This document shows, in pieces, positions 1 to 6,553 of a stretch of DNA of 6,553 nucleotides. The notes beneath the pieces were generated by a model. That model searched no databases, was not told the DNA's origin, and saw only the letters and a list, made by a program, of their open reading frames with translations. A program made the translations under genes and the position numbers. This stretch comes from a virus: the IMG/VR virus record IMGVR_UViG_3300009652_000304. One strand, written 5' to 3'. Within the stretch, counting starts at the first letter, position 1. Each line of letters opens with the position of its first letter.

Positions 1-123
1 TCACCGGTATCTTTATCCACGTACCAATCCCAATCATCCTCACCTTCCTGTATTGTCGTTTCATCATCAATAGATTGGTTATCTGTCTCATTCATCCATC
101 TTTCCAGATCGTCAATCCATGAA
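1..123. repeat. Terminal overlap copy 1, identical to 6431-6553. This is a circularisation signature.
   Basis: Base-by-base comparison shows that tcaccggtatctttatccac...gtcaatccatgaa is identical at both window ends (123/123). Confidence 0.95.
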
Positions 124-998
124 TCAGGCCAGTCTATTTCAGGCACTGGGGGACAGGGGACTTTTACTTCCTGTTCCGGCGATAAAGCGGTGCCAAAGCC
201 CGCAGCATCTCCAACATAATTAAAATAAATTGTTTGACCTATTATACTACCCAACTCCCTAAAATCAATATTAGTGGTTTTTTCAGCAGTTACTATTTCA
301 CCATAATTCATCATTGTCTGATAAACCAAAGTAATAAAATTAGCACCAACATCAGTTATATTTGGTGGTGGACAGCTACTCGATGCACTATATAATGTCA
401 CTATATTTAAGTACCTATGCCAATAATGCGACTGTCCCCATGCACGAGTATTTCCTTCATAAATTAAATCAAAGTAATGTACATATCTAGGGATTGAAAC
501 CCCATTAACATTATAATATCCATCATGGACAATATCACGACATAACAGAACGGAACCATTACTAAGAGTTGCAACAATTTCTGCATCATTAATCACAACC
601 TGTATATTATCCGGATAAGTAATATTGCTAGGAATATCCACAGAACCATTAGCTACATAATTTTCACCAGAAACAAAATTATTCGCTAAATAATCTAAAA
701 TACTTTGAATAGTATTTGCATTAATAATAATTTTGCCAGTAATAACACCATATTGAACTGCCTTTCTCCATTGCTCACGATTATACGCTTGCTGTTTATT
801 CCAATAATCCTGAACAGCATATTGTAACGCCTCAGAGTCTGCAGCATATAATCCACAGGCAGTTAGACCGCCAGCAATTGCGTAATAAACACCCGGACCC
901 ATTAATACTGCAGCCGGATTTGCTTGCACTGGTTTAATGAAACTTAAAATATTAATTAACATTAATCCAATTATTAATATTGCAAACTTCTTTCGCAT
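1..998 (-). CDS. N-terminal part of a 554-aa putative adsorption / minor coat protein (gIII analogue). It continues across the circle junction into 6430..5764.
   Basis: The ATG is at 998-996, preceded by GAGAGGA about 10 nt upstream. I checked every in-frame triplet from 998 down to 3 and found no stop. The frame (998 mod 3 = 2) matches position 95, which is equivalent to the track Met at 6525. The N-terminus MRKKFAILIIGLMLINILSFIKPVQA/NPAAV looks like a Sec signal peptide. The gene sits directly after the coat gene and terminator, as gIII does in Ff. It is missing from the ORF track because it runs off the window edge. Confidence 0.8.
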   Translation of the reverse strand, partial: MRKKFAILIIGLMLINILSFIKPVQANPAAVLMGPGVYYAIAGGLTACGLYAADSEALQYAVQDYWNKQQAYNREQWRKAVQYGVITGKIIINANTIQSILDYLANNFVSGENYVANGSVDIPSNITYPDNIQVVINDAEIVATLSNGSVLLCRDIVHDGYYNVNGVSIPRYVHYFDLIYEGNTRAWGQSHYWHRYLNIVTLYSASSSCPPPNITDVGANFITLVYQTMMNYGEIVTAEKTTNIDFRELGSIIGQTIYFNYVGDAAGFGTALSPEQEVKVPCPPVPEIDWPDSWIDDLERWMNETDNQSIDDETTIQEGEDDWDWYVDKDTG

Positions 999-1072
999 AT
1001 TTTTTATATCCTCTCTTTTTACTCTTTTAGCGGCTTAATTTTGTTTAAGCAGCTAAAACAATAAAAATAGTT

Positions 1073-1103
1073 AGCCAGTCTGAAAATATATTTCAGACCG
1101 GCT
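1073..1103 (-). terminator. Intrinsic-terminator-like hairpin immediately downstream of the major coat gene.
   Basis: On the - strand, AGCCGGUCUGAAA / UUUCAGACUGGCU forms a 13-bp stem with one G-U pair and a 5-nt loop. It is followed by AACUAUUUUUAUUG. It begins 8 nt after the coat stop codon. Ff phages have a terminator at the same place, after gVIII. Confidence 0.65.
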
Positions 1104-1110
1104 TTTGCTT

Positions 1111-1275
1111 TTAACCTTTTGCAAGACTAGCAAACAGTCTTTTACCATAACGCCAAGCCAGGAAAATTGCCAATATTCCCAGTCCGTATGGAGCAACAGC
1201 CCCTAAAGTTGCAACAATATCACCCGAAATACTCTGTAATGCAGTTTGTACTGCTGTATTGACAGTTCCTTCCAT
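1111..1275 (-). CDS. Major coat protein (gVIII analogue), 54 aa, Pf3-like and without a cleavable leader.
   Basis: Hand translation gives MEGTVNTAVQTALQSISGDIVATLGAVAPYGLGILAIFLAWRYGKRLFASLAKG. It has a polar or acidic N-terminus, one hydrophobic helix and a basic C-terminus (R,K,R,K) suited to DNA contact. The RBS GGGGGTGA lies about 5 nt upstream of the ATG. The gene occupies the gVIII position and is followed by a terminator. Its architecture resembles my recollection of the Pf3 coat protein (MQSVITDVTGQLTAVQADITTIGGAIIVLAAVVLGIRWIKAQFF). Confidence 0.75.
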   Translation of the reverse strand: MEGTVNTAVQTALQSISGDIVATLGAVAPYGLGILAIFLAWRYGKRLFASLAKG

Positions 1276-1280
1276 CTTTT

Positions 1281-1442
1281 TCACCCCCTTGCAACTGTAG
1301 TGAATATTTTAACGACTGCCAAAATCATAAAGCCCATTAAAGCACATGACCCGACAATCAATATTCCCATAAATATAGCCTGCTGCCATATATCTATATT
1401 TAGTGTTATTAATTCGGCATAATTTTCAAAATCCATATACAT
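1281..1442 (-). CDS. Small single-TM protein, 53 aa (gVII/gIX-like minor virion protein by position).
   Basis: The sequence is MYMDFENYAELITLNIDIWQQAIFMGILIVGSCALMGFMILAVVKIFTTVARG. The ATG at 1442 lies 1 nt after the stop of the preceding small ORF, giving TAA-A-ATG coupling. The track's 89-aa version begins at a TTG (1550) with no SD, and its first 36 residues overlap the better-supported 57-aa ORF out of frame. Confidence 0.55.
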   Translation of the reverse strand: MYMDFENYAELITLNIDIWQQAIFMGILIVGSCALMGFMILAVVKIFTTVARG

Positions 1443-1443
1443 T

Positions 1444-1617
1444 TTATAAAATCCTTTTCCAAAAAATAAAAAATGATATAGCACACAATGCACCAAACAA
1501 CATAAATAAGACATATAGTAATGCCTGATTGATATATTGCATTTTTTCAACCAGTATTAATAAATCTGTAACATTTTCAATTAATGATGTTACCTGTTCA
1601 GCACTCCAAGCCTCCAT
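1444..1617 (-). CDS. Small single-TM protein, 57 aa (gVII/gIX-like by position).
   Basis: Hand translation gives MEAWSAEQVTSLIENVTDLLILVEKMQYINQALLYVLFMLFGALCAISFFIFWKRIL. An AGGAGA RBS lies 6 nt upstream of the ATG at 1617, which is 10 nt after the stop of the upstream gene. There are no in-frame stops between 1617 and the TAA at 1446-1444. It is too short for the ORF track. Confidence 0.6.
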   Translation of the reverse strand: MEAWSAEQVTSLIENVTDLLILVEKMQYINQALLYVLFMLFGALCAISFFIFWKRIL

Positions 1618-1627
1618 GTTTAATCTC

Positions 1628-2029
1628 CTATAACTCTATTGCTGGTGTTGTACGACTTGATCCCGTTACCAAATCCTTGACCAAATAAATGCTATCAAGA
1701 TACAGATCAATACTATTATACTTTCCACCCTGAACACCCTTCCGGATACGAGCCGAAGGCCTTACAACACAGAGAACCTCTTGATTTTTCATTGATTTTA
1801 TAACTGGTGCCATAGTTTGTACGTCAGCAGATGGTACAATAATTGAATAAGAGTTAAATTGAGTTTTATATTTACTTTGTGCATCTTCTTTTACAACTTT
1901 TAATTCGAAAATAATATAATAACCGCTATTATCTTGTTTTTCTCTCGGCTCAGGCCTTAACAACTGACCTTTAATAATTACTAAATCCTCTTGATCACCT
2001 AACACTTCTAAATAATCGTTCATATTCAT
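1628..2029 (-). CDS. Putative ssDNA-binding protein (gV analogue by position), 133 aa.
   Basis: This is a track ORF with a GGAGG RBS 8 nt upstream of the ATG at 2029. It lies directly downstream of the replication gene, where filamentous phages encode their ssDNA-binding protein. I recognise no sequence motif, so the function is inferred from synteny only. Confidence 0.55.
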   Translation of the reverse strand: MNMNDYLEVLGDQEDLVIIKGQLLRPEPREKQDNSGYYIIFELKVVKEDAQSKYKTQFNSYSIIVPSADVQTMAPVIKSMKNQEVLCVVRPSARIRKGVQGGKYNSIDLYLDSIYLVKDLVTGSSRTTPAIEL

Positions 2030-2117
2030 TTAACATACCTCCAATATATTTATATAAATATACTTCTAAAAATATTTTTATAATCCTCTTTTTCGATAAT
2101 AAATTTTTTTAATACCT

Positions 2118-3239
2118 TTATGCAGTTATTTCTAATTGTTTTATTGCTTGTTGAATGTCTGTAAATATTCCTCTTATCTCATATTTTGATCCCGGCAGCG
2201 GTATAAATTCTTTAACTATAGCTTGTACGTATTTTTCCTCAGTAAAAACTAAACCACCTTTTGTACTTATACCCGCCGAAGAAAAATCTTTCATATATCT
2301 ATACCAAGTTGCTTTTGATACCTCAGCCTTAACAGTTTTTTCAGAATCAACTTGTATCCTCGTCCAAACCGAAAACAAATTACTTGCTTTTCTCCGAGAA
2401 TAAACTTCATTTAATCTTTTCTTTACATCTTCAACACTTCTTACTACCTTCATTTCATAAACACCCTCTTTAAATATTTTCGTTATTTCATTTTCATAAA
2501 CATGTATAAAATAATCATCATCTAAATCAATACAAATATTTGATACTCCATCATATTTCATTTTACGTTTTTTTACCTCGACTTCAAATCTAACAATTCT
2601 CAATGCTATATCTTTAAGTAAGTTTAAATTTTCTACCGTAAATCTTTTATCATCTTTCAATTTTCTAAGCCGGGGCATATCATGAACCTTAAACTCCGTA
2701 CCTTTATTATATGCCTTTACAGTTGTACTAGCACCTTTGATATAAATAGAATTTAACCCATAATTCATAACCTCCCTCCTCGGATAGTTAATTCCCCTCA
2801 AACTTTTAAAAAATTCGTCACATTCTAACTTTGAACCTAATCCAAATACATACGCTACATCAGCCCTCATTAATTCCCATTCCGACCAGTTAGGTAATTT
2901 TACACCTAAACGATAATTTACTAAAGATACTAGGTATCTGCAACAATCCTTTATATTTTCAGGCCCTCCAAAAACATTATGGCCTAATATAAACTTATGT
3001 ATAGATCCTGATAACGTTATTCTATTATCAGTATTAAATCTTATAGATAATCTATTATCATAAGAACCCGATAATTCCTGAGTAGTTATCTGCCATAGAA
3101 CTTCTCCCGTCTCACAATCTATTTGCTCAGTTCGTTTACTTAAATTTAACAAATTTATATATTCATTGTATGGTATCTGTGGACTTCTAATCGATAATGT
3201 ATCGTATATTTTAATCGACCCCTCTATACCTATTCTCAA
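2118..3239 (-). CDS. Rolling-circle replication initiation protein, Ff gpII family, 373 aa.
   Basis: Co-linear motif matches to M13 gpII, as I recall its sequence: YDTLSIRSP ~ IDMLVLRLP; ILGHNVFG ~ LQGHNVFG; MRADVAYVF ~ SRIDATFSA; IVRFEVEVKKR ~ LVRFEARIKTR; TWYRYMKDFSSAGI ~ SFWRYVSALVECGI. The start is TTG at 3239. An in-frame stop at 3263-3261 leaves no upstream ATG, and GAAGG lies about 8 nt upstream. Confidence 0.85.
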   Translation of the reverse strand: MRIGIEGSIKIYDTLSIRSPQIPYNEYINLLNLSKRTEQIDCETGEVLWQITTQELSGSYDNRLSIRFNTDNRITLSGSIHKFILGHNVFGGPENIKDCCRYLVSLVNYRLGVKLPNWSEWELMRADVAYVFGLGSKLECDEFFKSLRGINYPRREVMNYGLNSIYIKGASTTVKAYNKGTEFKVHDMPRLRKLKDDKRFTVENLNLLKDIALRIVRFEVEVKKRKMKYDGVSNICIDLDDDYFIHVYENEITKIFKEGVYEMKVVRSVEDVKKRLNEVYSRRKASNLFSVWTRIQVDSEKTVKAEVSKATWYRYMKDFSSAGISTKGGLVFTEEKYVQAIVKEFIPLPGSKYEIRGIFTDIQQAIKQLEITA

Positions 3240-3255
3240 ACTTGAGACCTTCGTC
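3239..3255. repeat. Copy 1 of an exact 17-bp direct repeat, aacttgagaccttcgtc. It abuts the rep start codon.
   Basis: It is identical to 3306-3322, with a 67-bp offset. On the - strand it reads GACGAAGGTCTCAAGTT, which includes the rep SD-like GAAGG. Confidence 0.9.
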
Positions 3256-3277
3256 GTGTGTTACTATATACGACGAA
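3250..3277 (-). promoter_or_regulatory. Stem-loop in the rep leader or candidate origin: an 8-bp stem with a 12-nt AT-rich loop.
   Basis: ttcgtcgt (3250-3257) pairs perfectly with acgacgaa (3270-3277), and the loop is gtgttactatat. One arm lies inside repeat copy 1 and next to the SD of rep. The palindrome tctcaa-ac-ttgaga (3234-3247) follows on the - strand. Confidence 0.5.
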
Positions 3278-3305
3278 ACCGGCACTCATGCAAAATTACA
3301 TTTAT

Positions 3306-3322
3306 AACTTGAGACCTTCGTC
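3306..3322. repeat. Copy 2 of the exact 17-bp direct repeat, aacttgagaccttcgtc.
   Basis: 17/17 identity with 3239-3255. It lies in the non-coding region upstream of rep. Confidence 0.9.
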
Positions 3323-3353
3323 TCCCAAATTTTGGAAATACCACTGTATAACT

Positions 3354-3554
3354 TTATAAATTTATTTTTTTTGGCGTTCCCCTACGGGTCAGGCTTTCCG
3401 TTCCAATTCTCGGTAATACTAGCATTGATTTTATCTCGATATTTTTTGTCATAAATGCCTGCAAAATATCGGTAAAATCTAATGCTATTATCACCGGAAT
3501 TTCCTCTCCAATCCTTAACGCACACTTAAAGATACATAATTTTAAAGATTTCAT
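3354..3554 (-). CDS. Hypothetical 66-aa ORF. Coding status is doubtful.
   Basis: This track ORF is on the same strand as all the genes. However, I see no SD-like sequence upstream of the ATG at 3554 (ACTGGTATAAAGAAT-ATG) and no recognisable motif. It lies in the region expected to be the large intergenic/origin region. Confidence 0.3.
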   Translation of the reverse strand: MKSLKLCIFKCALRIGEEIPVIIALDFTDILQAFMTKNIEIKSMLVLPRIGTESLTRRGTPKKINL

Positions 3555-3660
3555 ATTCTTTATACCAGTAATCTAATTCCAAATCGTTTTTAATTGTGAT
3601 ACCTTGCAACCATAACCAGATATAAAATTCCAAACACAACAACCCCTTTTTTTTTTCAAC

Positions 3661-3688
3661 CCCTCCCCCAAATAAATTTGAGGGAGGG
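3661..3688. other. GC-rich stem-loop in the large intergenic region, preceded by a C4T10 tract.
   Basis: ccctccc (3661-3667) pairs with gggaggg (3682-3688). After one mismatch, caaa (3669-3672) pairs with tttg (3677-3680), closing a 4-nt loop. A T10 run lies at 3647-3656. Confidence 0.6.
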
Positions 3689-3750
3689 CTACGCCCATTT
3701 TAAAATTACTGATAAACCGTCAGTAAAGCAGTAAAGCCTTACGGCCAGCC

Positions 3751-3798
3751 AAAAATAATTTTTTTAACGCCGGTTTGACCGGCTAAAAATTTTTTTTG
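3751..3798. terminator. Short GC stem-loop flanked symmetrically by A/T runs. It is a possible bidirectional terminator after the 112-aa gene.
   Basis: gccgg (3769-3773) pairs with ccggc (3779-3783) around the loop tttga. One side carries aaaaataattttttt (3751-3765) and the other carries aaaaa plus T8 (3785-3797). The structure sits 31-78 nt downstream of the stop at 3829. The stem is only 5 bp, and A residues separate it from the U run, so the terminator call is weak. Confidence 0.35.
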
Positions 3799-3804
3799 TC
3801 TGCT

Positions 3805-3821
3805 GCTTGACTGACTGACTG
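3805..3821. repeat. TGAC-rich 17-nt element copy A (gcttgactgactgactg), just downstream of the 112-aa ORF stop.
   Basis: 15/17 identity with 4247-4263 (gcttgactaactgactа -> gcttgactaactgacta). Both copies lie within 25 nt of the 3' end of an accessory ORF. Confidence 0.7.
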
Positions 3822-3828
3822 TGTGACA

Positions 3829-4167
3829 CTAATTGTCCAATATGCTCAACTGAGTCATATCTAAACCTTTGGGGTATTGCTTTCTGCAAAAATCATTTTT
3901 TAACTGCCCATGAAACTCCGTGCTCATACTGTTAGAGGTTAAAAGCTTTTTACTATATTTTAAGCAATTATCCCCTACGCAATAAGGACACCAGTTATCG
4001 AAGCTTGGGTTGCAAAATCTGCCTGATGGAATATTTGTTTTTACAAGTGGATCTTTTCCGTACCAATTTACTTCTTTCCATTCTTTCCATTCCTGTTGTT
4101 CTAATAAAACCAATACAGCCTTTGTTATTTCTTGGTCAGATTTATACGAAAAAGCCAATCCCTTCAT
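3829..4167 (-). CDS. Hypothetical Cys-rich protein, 112 aa, with a C-x7-C-P-Y-C-x4-C cluster.
   Basis: This is a track ORF with a GGAGA RBS about 8 nt upstream of the ATG at 4167. Cys52, Cys60, Cys63 and Cys68 form FCNPSFDNWCPYCVGDNC. I recognise no family. Confidence 0.7.
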   Translation of the reverse strand: MKGLAFSYKSDQEITKAVLVLLEQQEWKEWKEVNWYGKDPLVKTNIPSGRFCNPSFDNWCPYCVGDNCLKYSKKLLTSNSMSTEFHGQLKNDFCRKQYPKGLDMTQLSILDN

Positions 4168-4211
4168 TTTTTATTCTCCTCTCTGTGTCACATTTTAAAC
4201 AGACTGCGCCC

Positions 4212-4236
4212 AACTCTCCGGTAATTCCGGAGAGTT
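4212..4236. other. Perfect 10-bp stem-loop between the 64-aa and 112-aa genes.
   Basis: aactctccgg (4212-4221) pairs with ccggagagtt (4227-4236) around the loop taatt. No U-tract follows on the - strand transcript (GGGCGCAGUCUG), so it is not a canonical terminator. Confidence 0.6.
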
Positions 4237-4246
4237 CACTTTATAT

Positions 4247-4263
4247 GCTTGACTAACTGACTA
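4247..4263. repeat. TGAC-rich 17-nt element copy B (gcttgactaactgacta), just downstream of the 64-aa ORF stop.
   Basis: 15/17 identity with 3805-3821. It ends 4 nt from the stop codon at 4267-4269. Confidence 0.7.
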
Positions 4264-4266
4264 ATG

Positions 4267-4461
4267 TTATTTATGGTCTCCAAAATCAACAACCAGTTGT
4301 AGTCTATATATTATCGCGCCAAGTTCATTTGACATTTTATTAGGTAAATAATCATAAAGTTCATCAAACACTTCTGGTTTGACATCAGCAATCAGTCGTA
4401 TCATGTCAATTAATTGTGATTCACTTTTAGTTACCCTTTTCGCTATATTTTTTTTACTCAT
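4267..4461 (-). CDS. Hypothetical 64-aa protein, the first gene of the accessory module.
   Basis: This is a track ORF with a GAGGAGG RBS about 9 nt upstream of the ATG at 4461. A near-consensus promoter lies directly upstream. I recognise no motif. Confidence 0.7.
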   Translation of the reverse strand: MSKKNIAKRVTKSESQLIDMIRLIADVKPEVFDELYDYLPNKMSNELGAIIYRLQLVVDFGDHK

Positions 4462-4490
4462 AATACCAACCTCCTCTATATGATAATACT

Positions 4491-4519
4491 ATTATATCAT
4501 ATTGTTACAGTTGTTACAA
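4491..4519 (-). promoter_or_regulatory. Sigma70/SigA-type promoter for the 64-aa/112-aa module, with an extended -10 and an overlapping direct repeat.
   Basis: On the - strand it reads TTGTAA (4519-4514), a 17-nt spacer, then TGATATAAT. The -10 TATAAT is at 4496-4491 and is preceded by the TGn extended motif. The + strand octamer ttgttaca occurs twice (4503-4510 and 4512-4519) and covers the -35 and the spacer. An imperfect AT palindrome (4478-4502) covers the -10 and the expected start site. Confidence 0.6.
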
Positions 4520-4603
4520 TAGTTATTTATATTTATTTTGTTAATTTTGTATTAAGATTTACTTTATCTGATACATTGATAAAACGATATTAATAATTAA
4601 TAA

Positions 4604-4657
4604 AGCAGGTTTTTAGTGGGACCCCCCCCACGGGGGCCCCCCCCACAAAAACCTGCT
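4604..4657. other. Large compound hairpin with C8 / G5 / C8 homopolymer runs, overlapping the stop codon of the Zot-like gene. Candidate terminator, packaging signal or origin structure.
   Basis: agcaggttttt (4604-4614) pairs with aaaaacctgct (4647-4657), giving 11 bp. gtggg (4616-4620) pairs with cccac (4642-4646). The G5 run (4632-4636) can pair with part of the C8 run (4622-4629). On the - strand the hairpin is followed by UUUAUUAAUUAUUAAU. Confidence 0.6.
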
Positions 4658-5405
4658 AATCAAAAATATTATTTTTTTGTTCCCGGAATATAGCTCTGCA
4701 ATCTGTTAAATTATCATCAAGACTTATATCGTAACCGTCAAATAGTTTCATACTGTCATATCGGTTTGCTATTGATTTTCTGAATATCATAAATTCCACA
4801 TCAGTCTTAAATGATAACCCATAATACTTTTCTATTATTACAAATATCTTAAAGGGTAATAATCTAAACCACCAATACATATTAGATGCTTTGCGATGTA
4901 CGTACTCTTTTTCTATCATGTTCCGTATTTGCCGATCTAACATTCTGTCTGACTGGGCTATCAATATGAAATCATATCCAAATTTTCTGTGCTGACTGAA
5001 AAATTTTACCCACTGCTGCCGGTCCTTTTTACCATAATTTTTCACGCTTACAGATTGATCGTCATCACTGTTAAAAAATTCTTCCAGTGCTTTTTTTTCT
5101 TCTTTATCGGTTCGGTCATTAAAACGAACTCCTGCCTCATCTATTACAACTAAACATTGACTTTCTCTTTTGTTTTTCAAATAACCTCTCATCTTCGCAA
5201 ATCTTGCTAAATTTAGAACATTTATATATTCTTCAGAAACATAAAAAAATCTTTCTTCATATCCTTTTCTTTTTTCCCTTTTTGTAAATTTTATTGGATA
5301 ATTGCTAATCACATCACGCCCGGCCCACAAATTTAATAATATTTTCCGGGTCACATTTAAAGATTTACCTGATCCCGGAGTACCGGAATATAAATCAACA
5401 CTCAC
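4656..5405 (-). CDS. Zot / gpI-family phage assembly ATPase, 249 aa.
   Basis: Walker A GTPGSGKS is at residues 8-15, and Walker B-like LVVIDEAG is at residues 85-92. The N-terminal layout is typical of Zot-domain proteins. The start is GTG at 5405, immediately after the TAA of the upstream gene, with AAGGGG 8 nt upstream. The gene occupies the gI position. Confidence 0.9.
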   Translation of the reverse strand: MSVDLYSGTPGSGKSLNVTRKILLNLWAGRDVISNYPIKFTKREKRKGYEERFFYVSEEYINVLNLARFAKMRGYLKNKRESQCLVVIDEAGVRFNDRTDKEEKKALEEFFNSDDDQSVSVKNYGKKDRQQWVKFFSQHRKFGYDFILIAQSDRMLDRQIRNMIEKEYVHRKASNMYWWFRLLPFKIFVIIEKYYGLSFKTDVEFMIFRKSIANRYDSMKLFDGYDISLDDNLTDCRAIFREQKNNIFD

Positions 5406-5657
5406 TTAATCAACCCCTTTTACCCAGCGCAACGGAATTCTTAAAACATAATAAATAGCAACCGCTACAAGGAATAATTCCAAGTGAGCAATAATTCCGG
5501 CAACTGGAATAATATAATTGATATATTCTATCCATGTATTTTCAAGTTCGAGTACATATATAAATGGTGAGTCAGGAAGTAATGAAAACAAAACTGTTAA
5601 TACTTCCCCGGCTGCAGCTATAACTTTATTTATTAGAGATATTATTGCTATCTGCAT
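5406..5657 (-). CDS. Hydrophobic minor coat / assembly protein (gVI analogue by position), 83 aa from the ATG at 5657.
   Basis: The track gives 5406..5663 from a TTG. I prefer the ATG at 5657 because GGAGG lies 6 nt upstream of it. The protein is dominated by hydrophobic stretches (IAIISLINKVIAAAG, IIPVAGIIAHLELFLVAVAIYYVL). It lies between the gIII-like and gI-like genes, as gVI does in Ff. Confidence 0.6.
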   Translation of the reverse strand: MQIAIISLINKVIAAAGEVLTVLFSLLPDSPFIYVLELENTWIEYINYIIPVAGIIAHLELFLVAVAIYYVLRIPLRWVKGVD

Positions 5658-5763
5658 AAACAACCTCCATTAAATTTTCTCGTACTGTCATACAACGTTT
5701 ACAAACTCTATCTTTATGGTAATTTAACATACCACAAAAAATACAAATCCAAGTTTTTAGCAT
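5626..5763 (-). CDS. 45-aa zinc-ribbon micro-protein with a RanBP2-type Cys4 pattern.
   Basis: Hand translation gives MLKTWICIFCGMLNYHKDRVCKRCMTVRENLMEVVYADSNNISNK. The ATG at 5763 directly abuts the TAA of the gIII-like gene, and a strong GGGAGGTGG lies about 7 nt upstream. The stop is TAA at 5628-5626, overlapping the start of the gVI-like gene by 32 nt. The segment W-x-C-x2-C-x3-N-x6-C-x2-C is present exactly. Confidence 0.5.
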   Translation of the reverse strand: MLKTWICIFCGMLNYHKDRVCKRCMTVRENLMEVVYADSNNISNK

Positions 5764-6553
5764 TTATACACCACCTCCCATTAATCTTCTGGTAGCTAAT
5801 ATTAGCCCAACATCAAATATAAGTAATTCAATTTTTTTCACAATGTTACGAATAGCGTCAAACATTCCCAAATCAATATTGAAAACGAAATCAGCTAATT
5901 TAGTATCTATATTAATATCTAATTTGCCATCCCAAGAGCCACCGTCTAACTGCTTAAAACTATTATATAAATCCCAAGGGAGACTAAACGGGAATTTACG
6001 TGTTATGGTACTAGCACCCTTTTTTAATGGCTGCCAGTCAATGCCCGTATCGTCTGTTGGAGGGTTAGTTGTAACTGTCGTAGGAGGGCCAGTTGTCACC
6101 GTTACTACAGGTGGCCCCAATGGTAGACCATCCGGACCTAAAGTTGTTTCTGTTGTTGTTGTTGTTGTTGTTGTTGTTTCTTTCCATTTTTTCGTTATAG
6201 GATCATAAAATTTTCTTGTTGTATCAGAACGTTCTATTGTTTTTTCAGTCGTTGTACCGTCTGGATTATTTATTATTTCGGTTTCCGGAGGATAATCAAT
6301 TGTTGTTTCATCCGGATTATTTATATCCGGTAAATCATCAGGCACATTAGGCTCTGGAACCGGTACCGGAAAACCTATTTTCCTATCATCATCATGACGT
6401 GGACCTTCACCTTTTCTACGCTTGTATATTTCACCGGTATCTTTATCCACGTACCAATCCCAATCATCCTCACCTTCCTGTATTGTCGTTTCATCATCAA
6501 TAGATTGGTTATCTGTCTCATTCATCCATCTTTCCAGATCGTCAATCCATGAA
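5764..6553 (-). CDS. C-terminal part of the same 554-aa adsorption-like protein. Positions 6431-6553 duplicate 1-123, and the track Met at 6525 is internal.
   Basis: The frame stays open to the window end. The protein has an acidic, Trp-rich segment (EGEDDWDWYVDKD). It then has a Pro/Thr-rich linker with INNPDETT / INNPDGTT repeats and a T9 run. The C-terminal hydrophobic tail IELLIFDVGLILATRRLMGGGV could be a membrane anchor. The stop is TAA at 5766-5764. Confidence 0.8.
   Translation of the reverse strand, partial: SWIDDLERWMNETDNQSIDDETTIQEGEDDWDWYVDKDTGEIYKRRKGEGPRHDDDRKIGFPVPVPEPNVPDDLPDINNPDETTIDYPPETEIINNPDGTTTEKTIERSDTTRKFYDPITKKWKETTTTTTTTTETTLGPDGLPLGPPVVTVTTGPPTTVTTNPPTDDTGIDWQPLKKGASTITRKFPFSLPWDLYNSFKQLDGGSWDGKLDINIDTKLADFVFNIDLGMFDAIRNIVKKIELLIFDVGLILATRRLMGGGV
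6151..6177 (-). repeat. Perfect trinucleotide microsatellite: (tgt)9 on the + strand, (ACA)9 on the coding strand, encoding Thr9.
   Basis: There are nine uninterrupted tgt units at 6151-6177, lying inside the linker of the adsorption-like protein (KETTTTTTTTTETT). Confidence 0.95.
6431..6553. repeat. Terminal overlap copy 2, identical to 1-123.
   Basis: Same comparison as copy 1. An ORF runs continuously and in frame across the junction, which supports circular continuity rather than two independent repeats. Confidence 0.95.

Follow-up and report, generated by a model that had tools for sequence, protein, structure and literature searches.

The DNA analysed here, IMG/VR virus record IMGVR_UViG_3300009652_000304, is a stretch of 6,553 nt (hereafter the window) whose genes resemble those of a filamentous phage. 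Positions 1–123 are an exact copy of 6431–6553, leaving a non-redundant unit of 6430 bp. This assembly overlap is the closure point of the circle and falls inside the gene of a large pIII-like protein, whose 554-aa open reading frame (ORF) crosses the junction on the circularised sequence, on the minus strand, from 998 to 5764. The GC content is 33.7%. All credible genes lie on the minus strand in the order known from the Ff phages (M13/fd/f1, Inoviridae), that is replication, structural and assembly genes. The GC skew, negative along nearly the whole plus strand and slightly positive only near 6001–6400, fits this arrangement. Nine of the 11 ORFs examined have a Shine-Dalgarno site of the GGAGG/GAGG type in front of their start. 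A sequence-only reading of the window had already listed the main genes in inovirus order on this strand. Its list was right as given, except that a 45-aa ORF (5626–5763) was omitted and two accessory genes of 64 and 112 aa were left undescribed.

That reading had also proposed a closed circle of 6430 bp. In addition to the exact 123-nt repeat and the junction-crossing ORF, seven other public contigs bear this out. They were assembled independently and carry the same 6430-bp unit with 0–2 mismatches, different breakpoints and the overlap typical of each assembler: three ENA MEGAHIT k141 contigs (overlap 141 nt), JGI 3300026255 (127 nt), JGI 3300009642 (123 nt), ENA SPAdes ERZ747220 (77 nt) and Logan SRR5007518 (30 nt). 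Contigs encoding the exact Zot or pIII-like protein of the window measured 5–10 kb in 15 cases out of the 15 read, and all seven that were checked closed on themselves as circles. None exceeded 10 kb, and the unit was in no case found embedded in a larger contig with a secretin or integrase. At least six samples from several projects yielded almost the same sequence, with 0–2 single-nucleotide polymorphisms. As far as sequence data can tell, the circular form, strictly a head-to-tail repeat, is confirmed.

Several relatives, designated below by L numbers, were used for comparison. The closest, L087/L088 (86–93% nucleotide identity; a 6517-bp circle, Logan SRR24902074/76), shares everything but the accessory slot and keeps all structural ORFs open. 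L003, L005 and the IMG/VR contig 3300025864_000139 retain the gene order, with Zot about 70% and Rep 47–59% identical.

The assembly gene (4656–5405, minus strand) encodes a 249-aa Zot/pI morphogenesis ATPase with Walker A (GTPGSGKS) and Walker B (VVIDEAG) motifs. It passed the curated Pfam threshold of PF05707 (1.1e-17, 64.6 bits, cut-off 20.3); it also matched phrog_197 in PHROGs (3.7e-25) and the PDB entry 2r2a (5e-9). Its 2473 homologues are nearly all 220–250 aa long. A profile built from 35 of them aligned to residues 1–211 of M13 pI with an hhalign probability of 98.3. The Zot of the window ends about 26 residues past the aligned region, before the transmembrane (TM) helix of pI at 254–272. 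Its hydropathy maximum is 1.05 and no segment reaches TM-like hydropathy. Kyte-Doolittle hydropathy alone was dropped as proof that the protein has no TM helix, because the accepted TM helix of M13 pI itself scores only 1.31; the argument rests on the profile alignment to pI. In this alignment the moderately hydrophobic segment WWFRLLPFKIFVIIE falls on a cytoplasmic stretch of pI and not on its TM helix. The short-Zot clade thus corresponds to the cytoplasmic ATPase domain of pI only, without the membrane anchor or the exoplasmic part that contacts the secretin. A mostly acidic insertion of 26 aa, TDKEEKKALEEFFNSDDDQSVSVKNY, occupies residues 101–126 (5029–5106, minus strand) directly after Walker B. 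Only the nearest relatives, with a Zot at least 64% identical, share this insertion; other family members do not have it.

The replication gene (2118–3239, minus strand; TTG start, GAAGG ribosome-binding site) encodes a 373-aa rolling-circle initiator, Rep, of the gpII/X (Phage_CRI) family. The family assignment made in the sequence-only reading could be placed on firmer ground, since Rep passed the curated thresholds of both PF05144 (Phage_CRI; 2.3e-14, 54.1 bits, cut-off 21.7) in Pfam and TIGR01629 (rep_II_X; 49.7 bits, cut-off 29) in NCBIfam. It also matched phrog_702 (3e-35). The C-terminal G2P_X_C domain stayed below threshold (14.5 bits, cut-off 25), and PDB sequences gave no match. Three blocks, S-x-HK...GHN..GG, RxDxA and TTxKxYxKGxE..HD, are conserved in eight homologues. 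Among annotated phage and plasmid records the nearest Rep is that of a Ralstonia prophage, with 34% identity. The corresponding record, L092 (GenBank PP701473.1, ‘Phage WC36-1-filamentous’), is labelled with Lentisphaerae bacterium WC36 as host and flagged UNVERIFIED_ORG. Over all its 6255 nt it is 100% identical to a prophage on Ralstonia solanacearum megaplasmids (e.g. NZ_CP021653, 1177578–1183832). The nearest relative of Rep is accordingly a filamentous prophage of Ralstonia, and the host named in the record is open to doubt.

A hairpin at 3250–3277 (minus strand), TTCGTCGT[ATATAGTAACAC]ACGACGAA with the bracketed part as loop, is the candidate plus-strand origin and nick site. Between its 3′ end and the Rep start further downstream there are 10 nt. 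Relatives keep the loop core TAGTAAC while the stems change, for example to TCGGAGGGT/ACCCTCCGA. In an alignment of seven sequences 95% of the cells pair and three pairs carry compensatory changes; the covariation score was reached by none of 500 shuffles, and control windows slid along the alignment pair at 35–56%. With IMG/VR loci included, at least nine lineages carry the hairpin ahead of a Phage_CRI Rep gene, in most cases no farther than about 70 nt from it, and three further lineages have variants of the loop. At the level of sequence, covariation shows that the hairpin is real. Its architecture is that expected of a rolling-circle origin nicked in the loop, where we infer the nick to take place. 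The TAGTAAC-bearing sequence TTCGTCGTATATAGTAACACACGACGAA is accordingly named here as a candidate Rep nick substrate, with a putative nick position.

Two exact copies of a 16-nt direct repeat, ACGAAGGTCTCAAGTT, flank the origin hairpin (3306–3321 and 3239–3254, minus strand), compared with 0.04 expected by chance. Copy 1 (3306–3321) lies within a small palindrome, GAGACGAAGGTCTC. Copy 2 (3239–3254) overlaps the Rep ribosome-binding site and the first base of the TTG start codon, a position that suggests autoregulation. In L087 copy 2 is identical and copy 1 differs by 1 nt. The repeats are candidate initiator-binding or autoregulatory sites.

Hairpin and repeats belong to a large intergenic region of about 590 nt (3240–3828, minus strand), the analogue of the Ff intergenic region and strongly structured as single-stranded DNA (ssDNA). 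The segment 3555–3830 folds with z = −5.4 and comprises a long imperfect hairpin (about 3719–3815) and a 12-bp hairpin (3660–3689). The region 3401–3821 is about 94% identical to L087, compared with 86% for the structural genes. Gene finders call a 66-aa ORF, o66, here (3354–3554, minus strand), with no informative match. Its stretch is 98% identical in DNA to L087, where it ends with a frameshift difference. Given this frameshift and the lack of a ribosome-binding site, o66 is probably not a gene and is probably a non-coding part of the cis-acting intergenic region.

Downstream of Rep, in the position of Ff gene V, lies a gene for a 133-aa protein (1628–2029, minus strand). It has no Pfam or PHROG match and only nine homologues in 5.8 billion proteins. 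An AlphaFold (AF2) model with a pLDDT of 74 predicts an OB fold like that of single-stranded DNA-binding proteins (SSB). Foldseek gave 63 PDB matches at E≤1e-3, of which the 50 listed are all SSB/PriB OB folds, the best being S. aureus SsbA (TM-score 0.67); Ff gVp does not occur among these 50. Position and predicted fold point to the ssDNA-binding protein expected at this place, in line with the gV-position label that the gene had first been given.

Three tiny membrane proteins follow, each with one hydrophobic segment. The first, of 57 aa (1444–1617, minus strand), has a C-terminal TM helix (hydropathy 2.57), homologues in L003 and L005, and a weak match to CAK1_04 of Clostridium phage CAK1. 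The second, of 53 aa (1281–1442, minus strand; AAGGA ribosome-binding site), has one TM helix (hydropathy 2.54) and homologues with 47–60% identity in L003 and L005. Both occupy the pVII/pIX position and are candidate minor coat proteins, the 57-aa protein alternatively a candidate assembly protein. The third is the putative major coat protein of 54 aa (1111–1275, minus strand), with an acidic N-terminus, a hydrophobic core and a basic C-terminus. It is conserved in 21 related loci; its profile matches are sub-threshold (Phage_Coat_B 0.096, TrbC 0.011). Directly after the coat gene stands an intrinsic terminator-like hairpin (1073–1103, minus strand) with a 13-bp stem and a T-rich tail containing five T in a row. 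The two small TM proteins, the coat and the terminator were thus all present as the sequence-only reading had described them.

The coat lacks a leader peptide. Its homologues in relatives are 80–95 aa long and begin with a classical signal peptide of about 30 aa ending in AFA|EG, an AXA cleavage site. In an alignment including L003, L005, L009, L010, L017 and L052, the coats of the window and of L087 start with M-EG..., exactly at the mature N-terminus of these relatives, so that the coat of this lineage is leaderless as encoded. The alignment indicates that the leader was lost within one lineage, that of the window and L087. A leaderless major coat of roughly 45–55 aa with a single TM segment is also found in the Pseudomonas inovirus Pf3. 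The likeness is limited to this feature: the hosts differ and no sequence relationship is claimed.

The pIII-like adsorption protein is split by the ends of the window. Its N-terminal two-thirds (1–998, minus strand) comprise a signal peptide, a domain of helices and a beta-sandwich, and the first stretch of an acidic linker rich in Pro and Thr; the C-terminal part (5764–6553, minus strand) holds the rest of the linker with a run of nine Thr (T9), a conserved C-terminal domain and the hydrophobic anchor IELLIFDVGLILATRRLMGGGV. The AF2 model of the N-terminal domain (pLDDT 73) gave no PDB fold match at E≤1e-3, so that no inference on the receptor is possible. The protein has 19 homologues, among which the N-terminal domain is variable. 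The C-terminal domain was detected in 49 loci; its identity is about 71% with L003 and L005 and 27% with the receptor-binding protein of CAK1 (E = 1e-6). An in-frame alternative-start product of 193 aa within this ORF is the only unassigned ORF of at least 130 aa on either strand. The largest ORF of the plus strand, of 121 aa (5843–6208), is antisense to the poly-Thr region. A (GTT)n tract of the plus strand (6143–6184) corresponds to the T9 run and yields this spurious, Val-rich ORF.

One base past the pIII stop begins the 45-aa ORF (5626–5763, minus strand), behind a Shine-Dalgarno site, GGGAGGTGG, embedded in the conserved pIII C-terminus. It is zinc-ribbon-like (CxxC-x10-CxxC), overlaps the start of the next gene and matches Zn_ribbon_RanBP below the cut-off (5e-5, 22.9 bits, cut-off 27). 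It is conserved in L087/L088 and absent from L003, L005 and CAK1; gene finders also call it in L001, L093, L094 and L097. The next gene (5406–5657, minus strand) encodes a hydrophobic, pVI-like minor coat protein of 83 aa (85 aa if the TTG at 5663 is the start) with two hydrophobic segments. It is conserved in 71 loci and is 43% identical to the pVI analogue of CAK1 (E = 1e-16). The large secreted protein and the hydrophobic protein of the initial description are thereby both recovered as conserved genes.

Immediately after the Zot stop lies a second conserved structure, a G-run hairpin (4604–4657, minus strand) with a G8C5..G8TC3 core, a dG of −22.3 kcal/mol and z = −6.5. Covariation was read from the sequences directly, as MAFFT had put the outer stems of the lineages in different registers. 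A G-run/C-run core of the pattern G6-9 C2-5 N G6-9 C2-4 stands 3′ of Zot in seven lineages, and nowhere else in 1.7 Mb of related loci. The outer stems are lineage-specific, unrelated between lineages but perfectly complementary. The other hairpins lie in L003 (4101–4160), L005 (4547–4606), L007 (1594–1655), L008 (2383–2441), L087 (4628–4690) and L109 (919–1027), the last having two tandem copies between Zot and the origin hairpin. Conceivable roles of the hairpin are those of terminator, packaging signal or minus-strand origin, and the two G8 runs could in principle form a G-quadruplex.

Between Zot and the intergenic region, a variable slot holds the accessory genes. A sigma-70-type promoter-like site (4491–4519, minus strand; TTGTAA-17-TGnTATAAT) precedes the 64-aa gene; with 10 of 12 matches and an extended −10 it is the best on the coding strand, as a match to the consensus only. 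The 64-aa accessory or regulatory protein, o64 (4267–4461, minus strand), has a strong GAGGAGG ribosome-binding site and no significant match in Pfam, PHROGs, NCBIfam or PADLOC; its homologue in L087 is a 78-aa gene. The 112-aa Cys-rich accessory (cargo) protein, o112 (3829–4167, minus strand), also has a strong ribosome-binding site. It has no Pfam, PHROG, NCBIfam, PADLOC or PDB match and only 15 homologues among 1.84 billion representative proteins. One of its database matches falls inside DUF4379 treble-clef zinc-finger repeats, a weak link. Comparison of 3829–4255 with L087 4829–5218 reveals a swap: o112 is gone from L087, which has instead an unrelated 129-aa gene between Zot and the o64 homologue, with a weak NikA-like match (0.004). 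Outside this genome and its closest relative, the three accessory genes (64, 112 and 45 aa) are missing or have others in their place.

A wider set of relatives was considered in order to place the element and its host. A whole-genome nucleotide search against GenBank phages gave no match. The nearest GenBank phage Zot proteins, 31–39% identical, come from ‘bajarodino’ and ‘Dulem’ viruses (rodent and lemur faeces) and from CAK1. In IMG/VR at least 200 contigs carry Zot relatives, the best with 70% Zot and 59% Rep identity; single-protein Zot scans of genome contigs and IMG/VR found no close relative, and the exact genome is not in the IMG/VR copy searched. A host at species level can therefore not be assigned. 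The literature, searched by sample accession for the biome, gave no match either. In GTDB genomes 312 loci encode a Zot relative. Among the best 80 of these 312, on which the host tally is based, relatives on contigs of at least 20 kb are almost all from Bacillota, mostly Clostridia, with two from Actinomycetota. The isolates include Desulfosporosinus, Peptococcus, Anaerovorax, Blautia, Roseburia and Lacrimispora. Short-Zot genes also occur on 5.7–6.8 kb ‘plasmids’ of Clostridioides difficile, Clostridium butyricum, C. aceticum, Brevibacillus brevis, Paenibacillus popilliae and Exiguobacterium. Because the relatives on long contigs and the plasmid-like homologues are nearly all from Bacillota, the host is most probably a monoderm member of this phylum, of class Clostridia or a neighbour, to judge from these sequence relationships. 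They lend indirect support to the low-GC Gram-positive host that had been proposed from the base composition and ribosome-binding sites.

The best-known relative is CAK1 (OX639564, 6557 nt), a filamentous virus-like particle of Clostridium beijerinckii. It is alike in size, has nearly all its genes on one strand and encodes neither secretin nor integrase. Its gene order is also that of the window: ssDNA-binding protein, small TM proteins, coat, large receptor-binding protein, 85-aa pVI analogue and short Zot. Sequence identity is 43% for pVI, 34% for Zot and 27% for the pIII C-terminal domain. In contrast, the CAK1 Rep belongs to an unrelated family, with no significant match to that of the window, and the CAK1 ssDNA-binding protein has 80 aa and is unrelated in sequence to the 133-aa protein. 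CAK1 further has a second, FtsK-like ‘assembly’ gene after Zot and an opposite-strand helix-turn-helix (HTH) regulator, both missing here, and its coat carries a signal peptide, whereas that of the window is leaderless.

With the Ff phages the window shares a nearly equal genome size (6407 versus 6430 bp), the Pfam family of Rep, the alignment of Zot to pI and the order gII, gV, gVII/gIX, gVIII, terminator, gIII, gVI, gI, followed by a structured intergenic region holding the origin. It differs from them in having no gIV secretin, no TM or periplasmic part of pI, no coat leader, a gV analogue of 133 aa with a predicted SSB-like OB fold, and accessory genes between gI and the intergenic region. 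No sequence similarity to Ff was detected outside Rep and Zot. The uncultivated inoviruses (IMG/VR uncultivated virus genomes, ‘bajarodino’, ‘Dulem’) belong to the same short-Zot clade, on contigs of 4–9 kb. The pI/Zot-like ATPase is the only universal inovirus marker, and Roux et al. (2019), who found thousands of cryptic inoviruses in metagenomes including 922 circular contigs, recognised them by a pI-like ATPase, single-TM proteins of 30–90 aa and short genes (PMC6813254). The window has all of these: the ATPase, single-TM proteins of 57, 53 and 54 aa, and short genes. Its 6430-bp circle also falls within the range of about 5–15 kb usual for filamentous phages.

The remark of the sequence-only reading that few such phages are characterised holds for cultured isolates. 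Those of Gram-positive hosts are few: B5, Philemon, new Propionibacterium phages, CAK1 and Enterocloster/Hungatella inoviruses (PMC10061712; bioRxiv 10.64898/2026.07.11.737922). At the sequence level it does not hold, in view of the Zot homologues and IMG/VR contigs counted above.

Searches for a secretin, recombinase, integrase or transposase gave no match in Pfam, PHROGs or NCBIfam, and no ORF large enough is left over; beyond 400 aa there is just the ORF of the pIII-like protein, which has no Pfam match. The earlier statement that the genome has no room for a secretin and shows no integrase or transposase therefore stands. Scans of the window found no tRNA, tRNA fragment or Rfam match. The best matches to the dif sites of B. 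subtilis and E. coli had 10/28 mismatches, no better than in shuffled sequence; with no clostridial dif site in the comparison, this test is weak. Since there is no recombinase and no dif-like site, since only 6.4-kb circles were recovered and since isolates hold homologues as free circles, the most likely lifestyle is that of an episomal, chronically producing phage like Ff.

A purely episomal life does not follow from the lack of an integrase, because some relatives without one are integrated elements. L011 (element at about 4500–11450) and L012, which have the same Rep family and a Zot 44–47% identical, sit between chromosomal genes, with no recombinase among their ORFs of at least 150 aa. 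The L012 element has 55-nt direct repeats, 93% identical and 8136 nt apart (1349–1403 and 9485–9539). Together with the many more distant relatives on contigs of 30 kb to 5.6 Mb, these cases raise the alternative of a temperate element, an excised or tandemly integrated prophage inserted by a host recombinase or by its own Rep. We consider this unlikely for the window. Its 15 contigs are all short and the seven checked are all circular; terminal repeats are likewise present on the contigs of L087/L088 and L005, which are close relatives. Neither a dif-like site beyond chance nor a tRNA fragment is present, and isolate-derived homologues were deposited as free circles of 5.7–6.8 kb. Another prophage of the clade was seen in Desulfosporosinus sp. 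BG (L006/L010, MASS01000020; Zot 48% identical). Here the replication and lysogeny modules are swapped, with a Rep_trans initiator, a large serine recombinase and an ImmA/HTH pair. The same genome has two more Zot copies at contig ends (L013, L014). Replication modules are, by these sequence comparisons, exchanged within the clade: Rep_trans in Desulfosporosinus, another Rep in CAK1 and a gpII-family Rep in the window.

The free circles bring in another alternative, that the element is a small plasmid with rolling-circle replication, or what is left of a phage that has become defective and ceased to form virions. In favour of this, PLSDB lists homologous circles of 5.7–6.8 kb as non-mobilizable plasmids, Acinetobacter and Klebsiella have 2-kb plasmids with a Rep of the gpII/X family, and the infectivity of CAK1 was never demonstrated (bioRxiv 10.64898/2026.07.11.737922). 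Two such records, L089 (C. difficile pJMR5-1, NZ_ON887052) and L090 (Brevibacillus brevis pBbsII, NZ_CP134051), resemble the window in having all annotated genes on one strand, a short Zot after a large ORF and an ORF of about 85 aa, and no annotated recombinase. Further short-Zot plasmid records are NC_010915, NZ_CP075900, NZ_AP019719 and NZ_CP009688. These elements differ from the window in that their Zot is only 26–38% identical and their Rep types are different; they were deposited as plasmids and none was described as a phage. To us they look like replicative forms of filamentous phages filed as plasmids. For the window itself, a plasmid or remnant is very unlikely: the full morphogenesis set is intact with strong ribosome-binding sites, the sequence hardly varies between samples and projects, and no structural ORF is interrupted in the relative with 86–93% identity, in agreement with purifying selection on virion genes.

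A diderm (Gram-negative) host whose secretin is borrowed, as CTXphi uses EpsD, would explain why no secretin is encoded, and could be brought together with the Ralstonia affinity of Rep and with one 46%-identical Zot on a contig binned as Muribaculaceae, but it is most improbable. Zot has no counterpart of the TM helix or of the exoplasmic domain with which Ff pI touches the secretin, and the homologous morphogenesis block of CAK1 belongs to a Clostridium phage. In addition, the phylum-labelled relatives on contigs of at least 20 kb (best 80 of 312) are all from Bacillota or Actinomycetota, and the Muribaculaceae contig is only 2.2 kb long.

The window thus very probably holds one complete filamentous-phage genome, circular and 6430 bp long, of an uncultivated member of the Tubulavirales, together with an assembly overlap of 123 nt; the most probable host is a monoderm member of the Bacillota. 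The interpretation given in the sequence-only reading held up on every point put to the test. The filamentous-phage reading follows from hallmark genes above curated thresholds, the Ff gene order and a morphogenesis block homologous to that of CAK1. Several points weigh against it. It is built throughout on sequence, for the virion, the ssDNA genome and the host alike. The terminal direct repeat could also stem from prophage copies in tandem. Significant profile matches are missing for the proteins assigned as coat, minor coat and pIII, and the structure models are of moderate confidence (pLDDT 73–74) with shallow alignments. No relative in any named genome exceeds 51% Zot identity; the closest ‘hosts’ are small contigs of metagenome-assembled genomes, maybe mis-binned, one labelled Muribaculaceae and one Micrarchaeota. 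Finally, that Rep is nearest, among annotated phage and plasmid records, to a phage of the Gram-negative Ralstonia, at 34% identity, shows module exchange as judged from sequence.

On the filamentous-phage reading, the life cycle may be pictured as follows. Rep would nick the coding (viral) strand just ahead of its own gene, within the TAGTAAC loop and at a position predicted from the hairpin, and start rolling-circle replication. The 133-aa protein, with its predicted OB fold, would coat the displaced single strand. The 54-aa coat would enter the membrane without a leader peptide, as does the Pf3 coat, and the two tiny TM proteins, the pVI-like protein and the secreted pIII-like protein would also reach it. 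The Zot/pI ATPase would then power DNA extrusion across the cytoplasmic membrane. No secretin would be needed, as the host range of the relatives suggests a cell without outer membrane. An episomal replicative form probably persists, given that no recombinase is carried, with virions probably made chronically; integration by host enzymes would be possible. The variable slot between Zot and the intergenic region carries the 64-aa and 112-aa accessory genes.

The group is already known and abundant in metagenome catalogues, and the genome adds a well-supported, fairly ordinary member to it. It does not overturn current understanding. What goes beyond routine annotation, and is modestly interesting, is the covarying origin hairpin, the conserved G-run hairpin, the leaderless coat and the reduction of pI to its cytoplasmic domain. 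Filamentous phages of Gram-positive bacteria are barely studied in the laboratory, yet sequence data indicate that they are common in anaerobic communities. A complete genome annotated gene by gene can serve as a reference for spotting similar elements now filed as ‘plasmids’, and with its candidate cis sites it is a handy basis for work on origins and packaging signals. It also raises the question of how a pI ATPase without anchor drives extrusion across a monoderm envelope. Tentatively, the assembly machine of the clade may differ from that of Ff, with a soluble pI docking on another membrane protein of phage or host, a leaderless coat and the G-run hairpin as packaging signal or minus-strand origin; we hold this to be possible, though doubtful. 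If it is true, the genome would offer a compact model of the way in which filaments of ssDNA pass through a monoderm envelope when there is no secretin.

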